A stretch of DNA of 64,000 nt from a virus (IMGVR_UViG_3300037483_000378:1-64000), one strand, 5' to 3'; positions 622 to 21,973 are shown, counted from the first letter of the stretch. Notes: generated by a model from the letters alone, not told the origin. Numbers and translations are program-made.

Positions 622-1818
622 TCAGTCCTTGTACGGGTCTACGGTGTTGCCCGGGGCCATGCAGACGATCACTGGACGCAGGGTGTGCTGGACGGTGACG
701 GTCGGACCCTGGGCCGCGAGGACGTCGGGCAGACGGCGGTACGCCTGGGGTGCTTCGTCCAGATCAGCGCCGCGCAACACAACATCTCGCTCTGTGATCC
801 AGCCCTTCATGTCGGCGTGACTCACGGCACCCGGCTTGACCAACTGGCCCTTGCGCCACTTCCCCTTCGCCGCGGTGCGGGACATGACGCGTCCGGCACC
901 GTGGACGGTGGAGTACAGTGCCTGCTTCTGCAGCCATGCCTCGGCCGACCCATCGGGATGGTCGGCTCCGACCAGGATCACAGCGTCGTCGCCCATGGAC
1001 CCGCCGACAAAGCCTCGCTGGCCGGGCCGGGCCGGTGTCGCTCCTTTCCTTACCACCACATAGTTCCGCCCCTCGTGGTGCTCCCTCCACGCGAAGTTGT
1101 GGTGATTGTGGACAAGATCGACCTCAAAACCACCGAGGATCTCCACGACCCTACGCGCCACCCACTCCCTCCCCGCGTAGGCGTACTCTCCGGCCAGCGT
1201 CATCGCGGCCCAGTAGTCGTGCCCGATGGGGTGCTCCAAGTGCAGGAGCGCCTCCGCCTCTGGGACCTTCGTGCCCCATGGTTCTCCCTGGGCATAGGCG
1301 AGGAAGTTGGAAGCCAAGGTGTGCCCGAGCCCACGGCTCCCGAAGTGGACGCCTACCCACACCCGGTCCTGCTCGTCAGCGAACACGTCCACGTAGTGGT
1401 TGCCTGCGCCGATGGTGCCGAGCTGGTGACGAGCCCTCTCGCGGAGCTGGTGTCGGTAGCGTTCGGGTACCACGTCCCACACCGGCGACTCGAACAGCGG
1501 GTGACCCGTCGGAGCTCGATCCGCGAGATTGGCGAGGCCCACGCCGAAGGACAGGTGGGCGAAGATGTCGTCCGCCAACTCCTCCCTGCGATAGGCGATG
1601 GCGGAATAGGGCAGGTCGGTCAGGATGGCCGCGTTGCCACAAGCGATGTCGAAACCGACCCCCACAACGCTGACGCGATTCGAGAAGGCTGCCACTCCGC
1701 CGATGGGCATGACGTACCCCAGGTGCCCGTCTGCCATGAGGGCGAACCGATCCGCCCTCGATGCCACGTCCTTCGCTTGAGCGATGGTGCCCTCGTCATG
1801 CTCTCCGAATACCTTCAG
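622..1818 (-). CDS. rtcB: RtcB family RNA 3'-phosphate/5'-OH ligase
   Basis: Motifs DGHLGYVMPIGG, GFDIACG, GTIGAGNHY, VHFGSRGLG, HNHHN, RKGAT, GSMG, HGAGR, DEAPQAYR; probable CTG start at 1818 behind GGGAGG, overlapping the upstream TGA. Confidence 0.95.
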   Translation of the reverse strand: MKVFGEHDEGTIAQAKDVASRADRFALMADGHLGYVMPIGGVAAFSNRVSVVGVGFDIACGNAAILTDLPYSAIAYRREELADDIFAHLSFGVGLANLADRAPTGHPLFESPVWDVVPERYRHQLRERARHQLGTIGAGNHYVDVFADEQDRVWVGVHFGSRGLGHTLASNFLAYAQGEPWGTKVPEAEALLHLEHPIGHDYWAAMTLAGEYAYAGREWVARRVVEILGGFEVDLVHNHHNFAWREHHEGRNYVVVRKGATPARPGQRGFVGGSMGDDAVILVGADHPDGSAEAWLQKQALYSTVHGAGRVMSRTAAKGKWRKGQLVKPGAVSHADMKGWITERDVVLRGADLDEAPQAYRRLPDVLAAQGPTVTVQHTLRPVIVCMAPGNTVDPYKD

Positions 1819-2669
1819 GGCTCTGACCTCCCTAGCCGCGCCAGCATGCGCCGCGCGATCTCTTTGGTCTCCTCCGGGAAGTCCTTCGATATCATCCACT
1901 TCAGGTAGCCGGGCTGCGTCGCCACCGGCTTGTCCGCCTGCTGGCCGAACGCGAACACGATCTTGCCATTCTCGCGCCGCTTGAACTTGCCGGCCCTGTC
2001 CAGCATTTCCGGCGGCGCCGTGATGCGCAGCAGCTCTCCCACCGGCGGCCAGCCGGGTGCCACGCGCATGCTTTGCCCTTCTTCGACCACTTCGGCCAGG
2101 GGAAAGAAGTCCGCGAGCATCCCGTTCATAACGTCGCGCAGCACGCTCGCATCCTTGCTCGCACGGTGCGCGCCCTCGCCCAGCTCGGCGACGTCTGCGA
2201 ACCGTTGGACCGCCGACGCCAGGTCGCGTCGCTCCCTTTCCACCCACACCCGGTACAGGTCGATGTCGCGCGGCAGGATCTCGCCCCACTCGCCACGCGG
2301 CAGCCCCGAACGTCCTGCACGCCGAAGCTCGGCATCGAGGAACGGCACGTCGAAGCGCAGCGAGTTGAAACCCACGAGCACCGCGCCCTCGATCATCGTC
2401 TCTACCTGCTTGGCCACGTCCGCGAACGTCGGTGAGTCTGCCACGTCGGAGTCCGTGATGCCGTGCGTCTCCGTCGCCTCTGCCGGAATCGGAACGCAGG
2501 GGTTGACCAACCCCGTCAACTCGCCGCCGTCGCCGCCGAAGAACGCCAACTCAACGATACGGTCCGTTTCCGGGTCGAGCCCGGTCGTCTCCAGGTCGAA
2601 GTATACCAGGGTCGCAGTCAGCTCTTGCGTGAACCGAAGCTCGCCCCTGAAGTACGTCTGATAGCTCAC
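1815..2669 (-). CDS. DEDDh 3'-5' exonuclease (DNA Pol III epsilon/ExoX-like)
   Basis: YFDLETTGL, GFNSLRFD, HRASKD motifs; C-terminal FGQ..V...PGYLKW tail; GTG start behind AAGGAGG. Confidence 0.9.
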   Translation of the reverse strand: MSYQTYFRGELRFTQELTATLVYFDLETTGLDPETDRIVELAFFGGDGGELTGLVNPCVPIPAEATETHGITDSDVADSPTFADVAKQVETMIEGAVLVGFNSLRFDVPFLDAELRRAGRSGLPRGEWGEILPRDIDLYRVWVERERRDLASAVQRFADVAELGEGAHRASKDASVLRDVMNGMLADFFPLAEVVEEGQSMRVAPGWPPVGELLRITAPPEMLDRAGKFKRRENGKIVFAFGQQADKPVATQPGYLKWMISKDFPEETKEIARRMLARLGRSEP

Positions 2670-2674
2670 TTGCT

Positions 2675-3136
2675 TCACCCTCCTTCGCATGCGGCCAGCA
2701 GCCGCGCCAGCGTCATGACCTGCGGGTTCGTGCGCCCCGCCTCCACGTCCCGGACCGTCGTGCGCGAGCAGCCGGCCCGGCGCGCCAGCCCGCTCTTCGT
2801 AAGGCCCGCTCCGCTCCGCGCGCCCCGCACCAAGGCGGCCGCGTTCCCGAGAATGCCACCCGCAGATGCTGTCAGCGCCCCCGCCGTGGCCCATAGAAGC
2901 TCCCTGGCGCCCTCCGGCGCCCCCAGGGTACGGGTAAGCGCATCGGCACGACCCAGGGCGCAGAACAGGGCCTCGGCCGCGTGGGCATAGTAGCCGGGCC
3001 GGATCCGCTCCTCACCCTCCGCATCGCTCCGGCTTCGCGGGTATGGCTCCCCCACCACGTAGCCGGGGCCGCGAGCCTTGCGCGCCACCACGCAACCGCA
3101 GAGCCGGATCTCGGCCACGGGTGCGGGCCGGGTCAT
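2675..3136 (-). CDS. Protein with C-terminal XRE/Cro helix-turn-helix
   Basis: GLTKSGLARRAGCSRTTVRDVEAGRTNPQVMTL; ATGA overlap with upstream gene. Confidence 0.8.
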   Translation of the reverse strand: MTRPAPVAEIRLCGCVVARKARGPGYVVGEPYPRSRSDAEGEERIRPGYYAHAAEALFCALGRADALTRTLGAPEGARELLWATAGALTASAGGILGNAAALVRGARSGAGLTKSGLARRAGCSRTTVRDVEAGRTNPQVMTLARLLAACEGG

Positions 3137-17167: not shown

Positions 17168-17243
17168 TGCGGGCTGGAGGGAGTCGAACCCTCATGCCGG
17201 GAACCGCCCTGGGCTCCCTGGCCGCCTCCGCAGGCCAGCCCGC
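17168..17243 (-). ncRNA. tRNA-like element (8-bp acceptor, 5-bp T stem, 6-nt central loop)
   Basis: GCGGGCUG/CAGCCCGC+A; T arm GAGGG-UUCGACU-CCCUC; CCUG/CAGG arm; GAGCC-CAGGGC-GGUUC arm. Confidence 0.6.
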
Positions 17244-17891
17244 TGAAATCTCTCCCTCTGTTCGCCCGCTGCCGCTGTCGGTCCGGTCCGTGTGGTGCGC
17301 CGTTTTCCCCCTCGCCGCCTCCGTTGCGCTTGTGTGGCTCATTGGCCGCGCGGGCTGTCGCGATTCGTGTGGTGGGGATAGGTCGCCGGGTCCGGCTGTC
17401 GCCGTGGCGTGCGGGCTCCGTCGGGAGTCCCGTGTACCTCTACCGTGCCGCCTCCGCTTCTGCTGCGCCGAACTCCGAAGGCTCATCACCTTCGGCTACT
17501 CGGCGCCTGACGCTTCCTCGCGTGGGGCTCTTCGGTGCCACCGTGTCACGCTGTCGCCGCTTCTTTTGGGGCGCGGCCTCGAAGGCTCTCGAATCCGCCC
17601 GGGGCGTTTGCGTCGGTGGTCTTGTCGTGAGGTTCGCTGCGTACGCAGCGCCGAGTCTCCTGCCCTCGGTCTTGGCCGGTGCCAGCCTATTGGGTCCCGT
17701 CCGACCCTCACCGCCCTGTTTCGCTCGGGCGGCCAGCGGCGGGGTTCCTCTCGTCCGGCATCCCTGGCCGGGGGTCCCGCTTCCTGCCTACAATAATAAT
17801 GGGGGCGCCCCCCAATAGCTAGCCCCATAATCACATTGCGCCGCAACGACTTACGGTCATCGGCCTTTCGCGGAAGTGCCGCATAGGCACG

Positions 17892-17928
17892 AAAAGGTGG
17901 CCACGGCCCCCTATAGTAGTAGGCCACC
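17892..17928 (-). terminator. Probable intrinsic terminator of the tRNA operon
   Basis: GGUGGCC...GGCCACC stem followed by UUUU just after the last tRNA. Confidence 0.55.
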
Positions 17929-17960
17929 GCCCCGGACGGGCCTGGACCACCTGGTCACCA

Positions 17961-18034
17961 TCGGGGCGGCCGGACTCGAACCGGCGACCCTCTGCTCCCA
18001 AAGCAGATGCGCTGCCCAACTGCGCCACGCCCCG
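17961..18034 (-). tRNA. tRNA-Pro(TGG)
   Basis: Manual cloverleaf; loop TT TGG GA. Confidence 0.92.
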
Positions 18035-18042
18035 TCTTTCCA

Positions 18043-18124
18043 TGCGAGCGGGGGGACTCGAACCCCCATGGCCATCGGCCACGAGCTTCTAAGGCTCGCG
18101 CGTCTGCCGTTTCGCCACGCTCGC
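18043..18124 (-). tRNA. tRNA-Leu(TAG)
   Basis: Cloverleaf with variable arm; loop CT TAG AA. Confidence 0.92.
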
Positions 18125-18130
18125 GCGCTC

Positions 18131-18150
18131 ACTCGGGTTTCGTGGTAAGG
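18131..18150. repeat. 20-bp inverted repeat, copy 1 (partner 21954-21973)
   Basis: ACTCGGGTTTCGTGGTAAGG is the exact reverse complement of 21954-21973. Confidence 0.95.
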
Positions 18151-18156
18151 GGAAGA

Positions 18157-18230
18157 TGCCCTCGGCCGGACTCGAACCGGCTGCCTCGCGCTTAGGGGGC
18201 GCGCGCTCTGTCCGGTTGAGCTACGAAGGC
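18157..18230 (-). tRNA. tRNA-Arg(CCT), C33 variant
   Basis: Loop CC CCT AA; overlaps the HNH stop codon. Confidence 0.88.
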
Positions 18231-18823
18231 GTCGGGTCGAACAGCTCCTCGACCGCAGCGCGCGCCTCATCGCCGAGCCGCCCAAGGAATACCTCGGCAC
18301 GCGTCATCGCCCGCGGCTTCCGGCGCAGGTACATCCGTGCCTCAGCCGGCGTGCGGTTGTCCTTCCGCGCGTTGCACGTCGAGCAGGCGGTCACGGTGTT
18401 CTCGTACACGTTGCGCCCGCCGCGTGACTCCGGCGTCACGTGGTCGATGGTGAGGAACTCGCCCGCCGCCGTGAGCCGAATCGTCTCCGTGCCGTAGCGC
18501 ACCATGACGTCACGCCGTCCGTGCCCGCGCGCAAGATCGCTCTCGTGCCGCCCGCAGTACATGCAGCGGTGCCCGTCCCGTAGGTAGACGTTCCCGCGCG
18601 TCCAGGACGCGCGACCGAACACCACCCCTGCGAAGTCAGCGAGCGCCTCAAGCACGATCACGACTGGGGCCGGGACGCGCACGCGGCCGTCCGCATTCCG
18701 GAACACGCGGGTCGGGTGATCCCTCAACGACTGCGCCTTGCCCTCCAAGAGCAGGAGCACCGCGCGGTTGACCGGGATCTCGTCGATCGGCGCGAAGCTC
18801 GGGGCCAATACCAGGGTCTTCAT
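18221..18823 (-). CDS. HNH endonuclease
   Basis: RDGHRCMYCG, TIDHVTP.SRGG, N.VTACSTCNARK. Confidence 0.93.
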   Translation of the reverse strand: MKTLVLAPSFAPIDEIPVNRAVLLLLEGKAQSLRDHPTRVFRNADGRVRVPAPVVIVLEALADFAGVVFGRASWTRGNVYLRDGHRCMYCGRHESDLARGHGRRDVMVRYGTETIRLTAAGEFLTIDHVTPESRGGRNVYENTVTACSTCNARKDNRTPAEARMYLRRKPRAMTRAEVFLGRLGDEARAAVEELFDPTPS

Positions 18824-18887
18824 CTTCGTCTCATCGTGCGATCAGTTGAAGGGTGGAACAGCAGCGCGCACCGTGCGCGCAGGGAAA

Positions 18888-18974
18888 CGGAGCGGGTGGG
18901 ATTCGAACCCACGGGGCGCGAACGCCCTCCGGTTTTCAAGACCGGTGCGATAGGCCGGGCTCTGCCACCGTTCC
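18888..18974 (-). tRNA. tRNA-Ser(TGA)
   Basis: Variable arm; loop CT TGA AA. Confidence 0.9.
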
Positions 18975-18976
18975 AG

Positions 18977-19047
18977 AGATGCCGCCCGGAGTCGAACCGG
19001 GCCTGACGGGTTTGCAGTCCGTCGCCTCGCCGCTCGGCATCGGCACC
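18977..19047 (-). tRNA. tRNA-Cys(GCA)
   Basis: Loop CT GCA AA; U73. Confidence 0.88.
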
Positions 19048-19054
19048 ACGAACA

Positions 19055-19127
19055 AGCGCGCGACGGGTTTCGAACCCGTGGCCTCGAGCTTGGGAAGCTC
19101 GCGCTCTACCGACTGAGCTACGCGCGC
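19055..19127 (-). tRNA. tRNA-Gly(CCC)
   Basis: Loop TT CCC AA; U73. Confidence 0.92.
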
Positions 19128-19131
19128 GAAG

Positions 19132-19212
19132 TGCGTCCGGCAGGACTCGAACCTGCAAGCCAGAAGGCACTCGCTTTTGAGGCGAGCGCGTAGACCATTC
19201 CGCCACGGACGC
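19132..19212 (-). tRNA. tRNA-Leu(CAA)
   Basis: Loop CT CAA AA; variable arm. Confidence 0.92.
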
Positions 19213-19218
19213 AAGAAG

Positions 19219-19303
19219 TGCTGGCGGGGAGACTCGAACTCCCACGGGCCGAAGCCCCGAGCGTTTTTAGGACGCCCACGTCTGCCGGTTCCGCCACGCC
19301 AGC
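19219..19303 (-). tRNA. tRNA-Leu(TAA), C33 variant
   Basis: Loop CC TAA AA; variable arm. Confidence 0.88.
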
Positions 19304-19310
19304 GAAGAAA

Positions 19311-19394
19311 CGGATGGAGCGGGATTCGAACCCGCGCGGGGTCACCCCCAACGCCTTAGCAGGGCGTCGCCTTCAGCCACTCGGCCACCCATCC
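19311..19394 (-). tRNA. tRNA-Ser(GCT)
   Basis: Loop CT GCT AA; variable arm. Confidence 0.92.
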
Positions 19395-19398
19395 AAAG

Positions 19399-19483
19399 TG
19401 CTCGCGCCCGGATTCGAACCGGGATGCCGTCGCCGGCACGGCGCCCTGAACGCCGCGCGTCTGCCAAGTTTCGCCACGCGAGC
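19399..19483 (-). tRNA. tRNA-Leu(CAG)
   Basis: Loop TT CAG GG; variable arm. Confidence 0.92.
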
Positions 19484-19485
19484 AA

Positions 19486-19568
19486 TGCGCACGGAGGGAT
19501 TCGAACCCTCACGCCTCAATGGCACGGCCCCCTCAAGACCGCGTGTCTACCAGCTCCACCACGTGCGC
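19486..19568 (-). tRNA. tRNA-Leu(GAG)
   Basis: Loop TT GAG GG; variable arm. Confidence 0.9.
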
Positions 19569-19578
19569 GCATACCCTA

Positions 19579-19652
19579 CGGCCCCGCCCGGACTCGAACC
19601 GGGAACGACGCGGTTCCAAAGACCGCCGCCTCTGCCATTCGGCCACGGGGCT
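19579..19652 (-). tRNA. tRNA-Gln(TTG)
   Basis: Loop CT TTG GA; A1:C72 mismatch. Confidence 0.85.
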
Positions 19653-19666
19653 CCTACTCTGCGAAG

Positions 19667-19741
19667 TCTGGGGGGTGGGATTCGAACCCACGACCTCCGC
19701 GTCCCGAACGCGGCGCGCTGGCCGGACTGCGCTACTCCCAG
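19667..19741 (-). tRNA. tRNA-Pro(CGG)
   Basis: Loop TT CGG GA. Confidence 0.92.
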
Positions 19742-19748
19742 ATGATGA

Positions 19749-19822
19749 TGGGCCCGCCGGGACTCGAACCCGGGACCGTCGCCTTATGAGGGCGCCGCTC
19801 TACCGGACTGAGCTACGGGCCC
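19749..19822 (-). tRNA. tRNA(CAT), probably Ile2 (lysidine type), otherwise elongator Met
   Basis: GGGCCCG acceptor; loop CT CAT AA. Confidence 0.85.
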
Positions 19823-19827
19823 GAAAA

Positions 19828-19902
19828 TGCCCAGGGAGGGAATCGAACCCCCGGCCTCCTGCTTGTAAGACAGGCGCTCTCCGCTTGCTGAGCTACCCGG
19901 GC
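19828..19902 (-). tRNA. tRNA-Val(TAC)
   Basis: Loop CT TAC AA. Confidence 0.92.
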
Positions 19903-19924
19903 GGTGCTGTCGTGATGAAACCAG

Positions 19925-19999
19925 ACCGAGGAACGGGATTCGAACCCGCGGCCTTCGCCATGGCAAGGCGACGCTCTGGCCGGACTGAGCTATCCTCGG
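19925..19999 (-). tRNA. tRNA-Gly(GCC)
   Basis: Loop TT GCC AT; U73; atypical C1-G72. Confidence 0.85.
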
Positions 20000-20005
20000 A
20001 AGTGA

Positions 20006-20116
20006 GCGTGTTGGGGAACATGCGGCAACGGAGAGCCGGTTGCCCGGCGAGTCCAGGCGATGCCTGGTTGCTTTCGTTATGAGCGAAGTAACCGTCACCT
20101 TTCGCCACCGACACGC
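20006..20116 (-). ncRNA. Non-tRNA structured RNA displaying a CAU anticodon stem-loop
   Basis: Closing stem GCGUGUCGG/CCAACACGC; UUCG-CUCAUAA-CGAA; no T arm. Confidence 0.5.
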
Positions 20117-20117
20117 A

Positions 20118-20191
20118 TAGCGGGAGAGGGATTTGAACCCTCGACCTTCAGCTTATGAGGCTGACGAGCTACCAGGCTGCTCTATCCCGCT
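20118..20191 (-). tRNA. tRNA-Met(CAT), initiator-like body
   Basis: fMet-type D arm GAGCAGCCTGGTAGCTC; loop CT CAT AA; A1-U72; anticodon stem TCAGC. Confidence 0.88.
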
Positions 20192-20197
20192 GATAAA

Positions 20198-20283
20198 TGG
20201 ACCCGGCTGGATTTGAACCAGCGTGCACCACATGGCCTCCCGTTTATCAGACGGGCGCTCTGACCGGACTGAGCTACGGGTCC
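20198..20283 (-). tRNA. tRNA-Ile(GAT) with long variable arm
   Basis: Loop CT GAT AA; 16-nt variable region AGGCCATGTGGTGCAC. Confidence 0.88.
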
Positions 20284-20289
20284 AACTGA

Positions 20290-20675
20290 TGGAGGCGGCG
20301 GGAGTCGAACCCGCGTCCGTTCACGCTTCCAAGTCGTGACTTCTAGTGCGATTGTCGCGTTTCGAGTTTCTCACCCAAACTAACGTCCTCGGATGAGGCG
20401 GGGCTCTCGCGGTGCGCCAGACCTACTACCCCTCCGAAGGGTGAGCCCCCTTCAGGTGGCCTCGTCTTTCCGAGTGCCCATCTGGCTGATCGACGTTCTC
20501 TAAGCGACACCAGAATGATCACGAAGAGAACGGGAGACTTACGCTGCCTTGCGGAGCGGCTCCGAGTTGAGATCGCTGTTCGCGTTTCTCGGTTGTCCTA
20601 GCGCGTTAGCGACTGAGCTAGGATCGTCGCGCACATCACTTCCTTTCCACGAAACGTCGAAACCTTTACGCCCCC
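20290..20675 (-). ncRNA. ssrA: tmRNA; tag (A)ANSDLNSEPLRKAA
   Basis: 5' GGGGGCGTAAAGGTTTCGAC; 3' GACGCGGGTTCGACTCCCGCCGCCTCCA with G3:U pair; tag ORF 20583-20539. Confidence 0.93.
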
Positions 20676-20700
20676 GTTTTTCATTCCCCCCCCCCAACCA

Positions 20701-20772
20701 TGGAGCTGGCGGGGATCGAACCCGCGGCGTCCGCCATGCGAAGACGGCGCTCTCCCTCTGAGCTACAGCCCC
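20701..20772 (-). tRNA. tRNA-Ala(CGC)
   Basis: G3:U70; loop TT CGC AT. Confidence 0.9.
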
Positions 20773-20775
20773 TCA

Positions 20776-20849
20776 AGCCAACGCCCGGCATCGAACCGGG
20801 GACCTTCCGCTTACAAGGCGGGTGCTCTGCCTAGCTGAGCTACGTTGGC
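20776..20849 (-). tRNA. tRNA-Thr(TGT)
   Basis: Loop CT TGT AA. Confidence 0.9.
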
Positions 20850-20856
20850 GCGTTCT

Positions 20857-20929
20857 GCGCGGAACCGGCGACTGTCCCCTCTTCGGTGTCTTTCGACCGT
20901 CCGGTACGGAATGTCCATCCGGTCCGCGC
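20857..20929 (-). ncRNA. Unknown ~73-nt structured RNA inside the tRNA array
   Basis: Closing stem GCGCGGACCGG/CCGGUUCCGCGC; internal GUC-GAAA-GAC. Confidence 0.4.
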
Positions 20930-20934
20930 GTATA

Positions 20935-21021
20935 CGGAGCGGGAAGGATTCGAACCTTCGTGCCCACGTGGGGCTCTCGCTTTCGGGGCGAGCGCGTTTG
21001 GCCTGGCTCCGCCACCGCTCC
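20935..21021 (-). tRNA. tRNA-Ser(CGA), C33 variant
   Basis: Loop CC CGA AA; variable arm; G73. Confidence 0.88.
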
Positions 21022-21028
21022 ATCGAAG

Positions 21029-21101
21029 TTGCCCCACCAGGATTCGAACCTGGAACCTCCGCGTCCAGAGCGCGGCGCGCTGCCAGTTGTGCTATGGGGC
21101 A
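21029..21101 (-). tRNA. tRNA-Gln(CTG)
   Basis: U1-A72; loop CT CTG GA. Confidence 0.9.
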
Positions 21102-21111
21102 ATGTGAAGAA

Positions 21112-21188
21112 GGGTGACCGACGGGATTTGAACCCGCGATCTCCGGGGCCACGGCCCGGCGCTTTCGGCCGACTAAGCTACGATCACC
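21112..21188 (-). tRNA. tRNA-His(GTG), C33 variant
   Basis: G-1:C73; loop CC GTG GC. Confidence 0.88.
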
Positions 21189-21195
21189 ATTGAAG

Positions 21196-21270
21196 TGCGC
21201 CCGGAGGGATTCGAACCCCCGACCTCCTGATCCGTAGTCAGGCGCTCCGTCCAGACTGAGCTACGGGCGC
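21196..21270 (-). tRNA. tRNA-Arg(ACG)
   Basis: Loop CT ACG GA. Confidence 0.93.
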
Positions 21271-21287
21271 AAGGTAGGCACGAGACG

Positions 21288-21360
21288 CGGTCTGACGGAG
21301 CCCCGCCACGGGAGTCGAACCCTGCCGCGCCCCGTGCCATCACGGCCGCCCATGAGACCG
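21288..21360 (-). ncRNA. Degenerate tRNA-like element
   Basis: GGG-UUCGACU-CCC T loop; closing CGGUCU/AGACCG; CCGUG-AUGG-CACGG arm. Confidence 0.35.
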
Positions 21361-21370
21361 ACCGTGTAAA

Positions 21371-21443
21371 AGCTGCGAGCGGGAGTTGAACCCACGACCT
21401 CCTGCTTACGGGGCGGCGCTCTCCCGTGCTGAGCTATCGGAGC
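21371..21443 (-). tRNA. tRNA-Thr(CGT), degenerate/C33 variant
   Basis: Loop CC CGT AA; irregular anticodon stem (CCGC/GCAGG); C:C mismatch in acceptor. Confidence 0.65.
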
Positions 21444-21446
21444 AAG

Positions 21447-21520
21447 TCTGGACGGCGGGACTCGAACCCGCGACCCCTGGTCCCCCAGACCAGTGCGCTA
21501 CCGGGCTGCGCCACGTCCAG
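21447..21520 (-). tRNA. tRNA-Pro(GGG)
   Basis: Loop CT GGG GG. Confidence 0.92.
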
Positions 21521-21525
21521 AAGAG

Positions 21526-21598
21526 TACCCCGAGCGCGACTCGAACGCGCGACCTTCTGCTTCGGAGGCAGACGCTCTGTCCGCTGAGCTATCGGGGC
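21526..21598 (-). tRNA. tRNA-Arg(CCG)
   Basis: Loop CT CCG AA. Confidence 0.92.
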
Positions 21599-21605
21599 GA
21601 AAAAA

Positions 21606-21679
21606 CGGGACCGGAAGGAATCGAACCCTCGACCTCTCGTTCTGGAGACGAGCGCTCTACCAGCGTGAGCTACGGACCC
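21606..21679 (-). tRNA. tRNA-Trp(CCA)
   Basis: Loop CT CCA GA; G73. Confidence 0.9.
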
Positions 21680-21683
21680 GAAG

Positions 21684-21758
21684 TGTGCGCGGACGGAGTT
21701 GAACCGCCGACAACCTGGCTCTTCACGCCAGTGCTCTACCACGCTGAGCTACGCGCAC
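21684..21758 (-). tRNA. tRNA-Phe(GAA)
   Basis: Loop GT GAA GA (atypical G32, G37). Confidence 0.87.
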
Positions 21759-21761
21759 GCA

Positions 21762-21833
21762 TACCCCCACGGGGAATCGAACCCCGGTCGCCACCTTGAA
21801 AGAGTGGTGTCCTGGCCGCTAGACGATGAGGGC
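21762..21833 (-). tRNA. tRNA-Glu(TTC)
   Basis: Loop CT TTC AA. Confidence 0.92.
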
Positions 21834-21840
21834 AAAGGCA

Positions 21841-21913
21841 TACCTCCGGGCGGAATTGAACCGCCGTTCCCGCCGTGAGAGGGCAGCGTCCTGGGCCACT
21901 AGACGACGGAGGC
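21841..21913 (-). tRNA. tRNA-Glu(CTC)
   Basis: Loop CT CTC AC. Confidence 0.92.
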
Positions 21914-21920
21914 ATTGCTG

Positions 21921-21953: not shown

Positions 21954-21973
21954 CCTTACCACGAAACCCGAGT
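21954..21973. repeat. 20-bp inverted repeat, copy 2 (partner 18131-18150)
   Basis: CCTTACCACGAAACCCGAGT. Confidence 0.95.

Follow-up and report, generated by a model that had tools for sequence, protein, structure and literature searches.

Five of the 31 credible tRNA genes in a 64,000-nucleotide (nt) stretch of viral DNA (IMGVR_UViG_3300037483_000378:1-64000, the whole of which is called the window here) carry cytidine at position 33 (C33) of the anticodon loop, where uridine (U33) counts as invariant on account of its role in forming the anticodon U-turn. The window comes from an 80.5-kb virus record in IMG/VR, with a CheckV completeness estimate of 93% and a GC content of 65–70% (given as 67% for the record), which represents an uncultivated tailed phage. 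Our favoured reading, held at rather less than even confidence, is that the five are true elongator tRNA genes of bacterial type, belonging to a Gemmatimonadota-like phage, and that C33 is kept in them through insulation from host factors that read the anticodon loop. Weakly deleterious drift driven by GC content is a nearly equal rival. The five genes, together with a phenylalanine tRNA gene whose loop is altered at other positions, are located as follows:

18157–18230, minus strand: tRNA-Arg(CCT), arm CGCGC CC-CCT-AA GCGCG with a perfect 5-bp anticodon stem, C33 at 18197 (ARAGORN; Rfam 60.2 bits)
19218–19303, minus strand: tRNA-Leu(TAA), class II, arm GGCGT CC-TAA-AA ACGCT, C33 at 19270 (ARAGORN; Rfam 43.6 bits)
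20934–21022, minus strand: tRNA-Ser(CGA), class II, arm CTCGC CC-CGA-AA GCGAG, C33 at 20986 (ARAGORN; Rfam 51.2 bits)
21112–21187, minus strand: tRNA-His(GTG), arm CCGGG CC-GTG-GC CCCGG, C33 at 21153 (ARAGORN; Rfam 60.4 bits)
21371–21443, minus strand: tRNA-Thr(CGT), a weak gene, arm GCCGC CC-CGT-AA GCAGG, C33 at 21411 (Rfam 41.6 bits)
21683–21758, minus strand: tRNA-Phe(GAA), loop GT-GAA-GA with G32, U33 and G37 (ARAGORN; Rfam 56.4 bits)

All five genes (Arg, Leu, Ser, His and Thr) have the dinucleotide C32–C33, read as G on the plus strand at each C33 position, and Infernal alignments place the same 7-nt anticodon loops in Ser, His and Thr. The original prediction for this DNA had named these five C33 loops and the G32/G37 combination in Phe, and re-extraction of the loops returned them identically. 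The anticodon loop is 7 nt long in all five genes, their scores lie above the RF00005 cut-off (41.6–60.4 bits versus 29), and position 33, which is U in canonical elongator tRNAs, is C in 5/5. The T-loop invariants G53, T54, T55, C56, A58 and C61 are intact in the five and in all 31 array genes; positions A14, A21 and U8, grouped with the D-loop, were left unused because their parse from ARAGORN brackets is unreliable. No CCA end is encoded, and a CCA-adding enzyme was not found in the phage record. The Phe loop, GT-GAA-GA, differs from the CT-GAA-AA of Phe tRNAs in the likely host phylum. A possible sixth C33 case, Pro(AGG) at 17168–17243, was rejected as an ARAGORN call alone with mismatched stems. 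Sequencing error, listed with the original prediction as something that might overturn it, was also rejected, since the same error would have to have struck one structural position five times in genes that are otherwise canonical.

Structural integrity bears on the possibility that the array is losing function and that the five, or some of them, are inactive or decaying copies. Stems are intact in four of the five genes, the exception being Thr(CGT), which has one mismatch in the acceptor stem and two in the anticodon stem together with a canonical T-loop. Leu(TAA) scores low but folds cleanly with its structure intact, and its codon, UUA, is used 0.6 times per 1000 in the phage genes. A further hint of decay comes from the 100 nt that separate Arg(ACG) from Thr(CGT) (21271–21370, minus strand), where a T-arm-like GGGTTCGACTCCC motif may be what is left of a former tRNA gene. 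Against this stand the perfect anticodon stems, canonical T-loops and scores of 51–60 bits of Arg, Ser and His; the G-1 of His(GTG), which by our reading of the sequence is encoded at 21188 opposite C73, so that the identity pair is kept; the compact, single-strand layout of the array; and the single occurrence of each anticodon. Codon use in the phage genes, where ACG makes up 64% of Thr codons and CAY all His codons, shows that the C33 tRNAs are not limited to rare codons, a point in favour of the insulation reading described below. Decay is improbable for the set, and pseudogenization is plausible for Thr(CGT) alone.

Nor is the mature sequence likely to differ from the gene. C-to-U editing of tRNA occurs in archaea and organelles, and editing after transcription would make the five canonical; to our knowledge, however, it has not been described at position 33 in bacteria or phages. 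Our analysis gave no point in its favour, no cytidine-deaminase domain (PF00383) was found in the 80.5-kb record, and we consider this explanation very improbable. We infer that the five tRNAs are expressed and charged, and the same holds for what is said below of their modification status and of any selective advantage.

Gemmatimonadota is the probable host phylum, an assignment that follows from GC content and from protein matches: the phage DnaB shares 56–59% identity with sequences from three metagenome-assembled genomes (MAGs) of Gemmatimonadota, and its portal protein matches, at 44% identity (E = 1e-123), a prophage-like region of another Gemmatimonadota genome; that region has no tRNA array. 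A sample of 113 tRNAs from three Gemmatimonadota genomes (63 in syntenic chromosomal arrays, the other 50 dispersed) has U33 in 113/113 and C33 in none. Counterparts of the five in this likely host phylum have CT or TT at positions 32–33, so the phage anticodon loops differ from them; the Gemmatimonadota Ser(CGA) arm, CTCGC CT-CGA-AA GCGAG, differs from the phage arm at position 33 alone. Because the host-phylum tRNAs are all U33 (C33 in 5/31 versus 0/113, p = 3.5e-4), C33 is on this comparison the derived state. The three MAGs share a syntenic array of ~17–19 tRNA genes, all U33, on contigs taken as chromosomal, in the order Ser-CGA, Pro-CGG, Ser-GGA, Ser-GCT, Gln, Thr, Ala, Val, Arg, Leu, Leu, Ala, Asp, Glu, Trp, Phe, Met.

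Within the window, the change is both specific to one position and repeated, beyond what chance would give. Position 33 is altered in 5/31 genes versus 0/62 at T54 and T55 of the same genes (p = 0.003), and the C33 fraction also exceeds that of eleven other phage arrays (5/31 versus 12/246, p = 0.03). Pairwise identity among the five C33 genes is 52–70%, and the nearest relative of each within the window is a U33 tRNA; on this ground, these are five separate U-to-C events and not one event spread by duplication, which bears out the independence that had been proposed for them.

C33 is not unique to the window's phage, a point absent from the original prediction. The eleven arrays just mentioned come from cultured or deposited phages, and their 12 cases are divided among Rctr197k (6), JayJay (2), Myrna, Pumpernickel, phiCbK and XacN1 (1 each). 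A further 17/258 tRNAs with C33 were found in IMG/VR arrays, a sample that consists of contigs matched by the Ser(CGA) arm pattern; one further C33 Ser(CGA) emerged from that scan, on a contig (L130) unrelated to the window's phage. Across all phage arrays, the window included, C33 amounts to 34/534 (6.4%), and A or G never occurs at position 33. The distribution is uneven among isoacceptors: tRNA-Val has C33 in 11/27 cases versus 23/507 for other tRNAs (p = 8e-8), in several lineages, with some of the phages being related. While tRNA-Val is the commonest C33 carrier in phage arrays, the window's own Val(TAC) has U33. In the C1 mycobacteriophages, C33 is present in Val-GAC of 144/161 phages and in Val-CAC of 142/161 (PMC10264068, Supplementary file 1a), where the table labels these tRNAs merely as ‘mutations’ relative to the host; position 33 is mentioned 0 times in the text of that paper. 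The C2 phage Myrna also has a C33 Val-GAC, and near-fixation in 161 C1 phages together with this occurrence argues that C33 is stably kept. A full-text search of the literature found no paper on C33 or U33 in phage tRNAs.

Published enzymology suggests what the substitution would change. For the E. coli tRNA-guanine transglycosylase (TGT), which introduces queuosine, the minimum requirement is UGU (Nakanishi 1994, as cited in PMC1635277). TGT is encoded in the likely host phylum and was not found in the phage record. Since TGT needs UGU, His(GTG) is probably under-modified, escaping queuosine and staying G34, and the escape put forward in the original prediction is a reasonable expectation. 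tRNAs for ANN codons, which include Arg(CCT) and Thr(CGT), normally carry N6-threonylcarbamoyladenosine at position 37 (t6A37). A U33C initiator tRNA gets no t6A37 from E. coli TsaBCDE (PMC8887486). Given that U33C blocks bacterial t6A37 formation in this way, a consequence that the original prediction missed, under-modification of A37 is probable in Arg(CCT) and Thr(CGT).

In the reading that we favour, host proteins that read U33 would lose their proper substrate once it is replaced by C. TGT would leave the His tRNA without queuosine, the t6A machinery would leave A37 of Arg(CCT) and Thr(CGT) unmodified, and nucleases cutting at the 32/33 or 33/34 junction would face an altered site; one bacterial toxin, CdiA-CT EC536, cleaves exactly between C32 and U33 (PMC11724271). 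With a pyrimidine retained at 33, the loop would still be usable for decoding, at some loss of efficiency. GC-biased mutation would supply the C33 variants, and insulation from anticodon-loop readers would then maintain them in phage arrays. Evasion of nucleases in particular is plausible, and unproven. The reading draws on the specificity for position 33, the return of the change in unrelated phages, its concentration in Val, its long-term retention in cluster C phages and the RtcB and tmRNA context, to which the following features belong:

17961–21914, minus strand: array of 31 credible tRNA genes and one transfer-messenger RNA (tmRNA) gene (ARAGORN, Rfam)
20290–20675, minus strand: tmRNA within the array, tag peptide ANSDLNSEPLRKAA (ARAGORN; Rfam RF00023, 81.2 bits)
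622–2289, minus strand: RtcB-type RNA ligase (Pfam PF01139, E = 7.8e-66, 223 bits)

RtcB joins 2',3'-cyclic-phosphate to 5'-OH ends, the termini that anticodon nucleases leave behind, and the phage ligase could thus reseal cleaved tRNAs. Its domain covers residues 180–543 of the listed open reading frame, for which reason the true start probably lies near 1810. An RNase T-family exonuclease (PF00929, E = 7e-22) adjoins it, and the two (622–2894, minus strand) are a possible, predicted pair for tRNA repair or processing. A near-complete tRNA set, a tmRNA and RtcB look like the equipment of a phage prepared for assaults on translation; C33 would form part of this counter-defence kit against tRNA-targeting immunity.

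Several observations weigh against such insulation. Colicin E5 cuts U33C minihelices like wild type, any pyrimidine being sufficient at that position (PMC1635277), and cleavage by the K. lactis gamma-toxin is unaffected by U33C (PMC2275089). Because both cut U33C substrates normally, C33 is not a generic anticodon-nuclease shield, and the nuclease evasion raised in the original prediction is not a general result of U33C. Evasion of colicin-E5-type cleavage by the His tRNA was rejected, as colicin E5 takes C as well as U at position 33. U33C is not known to block any nuclease, and substrates with this change have been tried on the two just named. Mutation of U33 is said to reduce translational efficiency, and a yeast tRNA-Gln with U33C shows a decoding-defect phenotype (PMC3664417); C33 would therefore carry a cost. 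No target or modification shared by the five isoacceptors is obvious, C33 always arises by a T-to-C transition, as mutation bias predicts, and Thr(CGT) may be decaying. Frequency also follows composition, with C33 in 15/162 tRNAs of arrays of at least 61% GC versus 2/114 in lower-GC arrays (p = 0.01). Finally, no relative of this phage carrying the array was found: megablast and blastn of the array against 50,697 phage records returned single-tRNA matches or nothing. Array-bearing relatives were likewise absent from a tblastn search of those records with the portal and capsid-protease proteins. In IMG/VR, the relatives retrieved through the two array-flanking proteins have no tRNA arrays, and the portal and DnaB proteins retrieved no relatives; neither the His nor the Arg(CCT) arm was matched in exact-pattern scans.

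The rival explanation is a balance between mutation and selection, to which we also attach substantial, though less than even, probability. U33C would be the least harmful change at position 33, tolerated and not selected; phage tRNAs would merely supplement the host pool and so be under weak selection, a mutation bias from T to C at 67% GC would generate the variants, and loss of queuosine or t6A would be a side effect. Such a balance fits the replacement of U33 by C alone, never by A or G, among the 534 phage tRNAs, as it does the GC correlation, the absence of any theme shared by the five isoacceptors and the stem mismatches that one of them, Thr(CGT), also carries. The indifference of loop-reading nucleases to U33C suggests a near-native loop, and the functional C33 initiators of multicellular eukaryotes are in keeping with tolerance. 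It is harder to square with U33 in all 113 host-phylum tRNAs at similar GC, the unchanged state of other invariant positions in the same genes, the strong Val enrichment repeated across lineages, and near-fixation in the 161 C1 phages together with presence in Myrna. The placement of C33 on the phage's sole His tRNA and on the tRNA for the dominant Thr codon also speaks against it. Isoacceptor-specific tolerance could, however, explain all of these points. The interpretation in the original prediction is partly supported: the independence stands and is joined by specificity for position 33, whereas the step from five changes to selection is not established, given the GC correlation and the uniform T-to-C direction.

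Anticodon-loop variation in phage tRNA arrays is already known, and the window is a further, unusually rich example. The closest parallel is provided by the C1 mycobacteriophages (van den Berg et al. 2023, eLife, PMC10264068), which, like the window's phage, have large one-strand arrays with a tmRNA and many anticodon loops unlike those of the host. Their C33 cases are the Val-GAC and Val-CAC loops, TC-xxx-AC, in ~90% of 161 phages, whereas in the window they are Arg, Leu, Ser, His and Thr, with a larger proportion of C33 genes (16%) than in the C1 arrays. That study, which put forward the hypothesis of nuclease-insensitive phage tRNA variants, argues from known cleavage sites of VapC and other nucleases in a known host, whereas the window's phage has a probable host phylum. 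In phage T5, tRNAs set against the retron and PARIS tRNA nucleases are likewise phage variants that replace host tRNAs destroyed by immunity; rescue was demonstrated experimentally there for tRNA-Tyr and tRNA-Lys, while the window is known from sequence alone, and U33C is not reported there as the protective change (PMC11555353, PMC11464382). The initiator tRNA-Met of multicellular eukaryotes is a natural, functional tRNA whose C33 is an anti-determinant for t6A formation by the machineries of bacteria and yeast, but it has a co-evolved modification enzyme, unlike the C33 tRNAs of the window, which are bacterial-type phage elongators (PMC8887486). The array of Rctr197k (KX853510, 61% GC) has C33 in 6/41 tRNAs, a fraction similar to the window's, and shares Leu(TAA) with it; the genome is unrelated and the C33 set differs, comprising Val twice, Leu twice, Arg-TCT and Met. 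A wider claim, which we hold to be less likely than not, is that U33-to-C is a general phage-specific adaptation, present in ~6% of phage-array tRNAs, ~40% of those for Val and none of the sampled host-phylum tRNAs. It would free phage tRNAs from the host enzymes and toxins that read the U-turn nucleotide, and would be a counter-defence signature not singled out before.

The array itself is compact. ARAGORN predicts 32 tRNAs and one tmRNA, all on the minus strand, at 17168–21914; support at the Rfam gathering score extends to 30 tRNAs in a whole-window scan and 31 in a genome search, as well as to the tmRNA. Sixteen amino acids are covered by the tRNAs at 17961–21914, those without one being Asn, Asp, Lys and Tyr. 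Asp codons occur at 65 per 1000 in the phage genes, yet the array has no tRNA-Asp. His is the only one of the four queuosine-family tRNAs in the array, and it is His that carries C33. At 88 nt, tRNA-Ile(GAT) (20197–20284, minus strand; Rfam 67.8 bits) exceeds the usual length of class I tRNAs. Two further elements are associated with the array:

18221–18823, minus strand: HNH endonuclease gene within the array (Pfam HNH, E = 5e-12; PHROG HNH families)
18131–18150 and 21954–21973: perfect 20-bp inverted repeat (repeat search)

The 3' end of the HNH gene overlaps tRNA-Arg(CCT) by ~10 nt. The inverted repeat encloses 29 tRNAs, the tmRNA and the HNH gene, with Pro(TGG) and Leu(TAG) just outside, and suggests that the block may be a present or former mobile cassette. 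Elsewhere, the phage record encodes the portal, a head protease, a tape-measure protein, the recombination proteins RecT and YqaJ, DnaB and RusA. Beyond the window lie a 658-amino-acid protein with an N-terminal Lar restriction-alleviation domain (67624–69600 of the record) and another that carries an SLT lytic-transglycosylase domain (72573–73604 of the record), the latter consistent with a Gram-negative-type host.

Phage tRNAs thus occupy sequence space that cellular tRNAs avoid, with C33 in ~6% of 534 phage tRNAs versus 0/113 in the host phylum. If the change is selected, C33 would be a cheap marker of phage tRNAs shaped by host defences that target tRNA, and the readers of U33, namely TGT, the t6A machinery and nucleases acting at the 32/33 or 33/34 junction, would be the interface concerned. 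If it reflects drift, C33 would instead gauge the relaxation of selection on accessory tRNAs.

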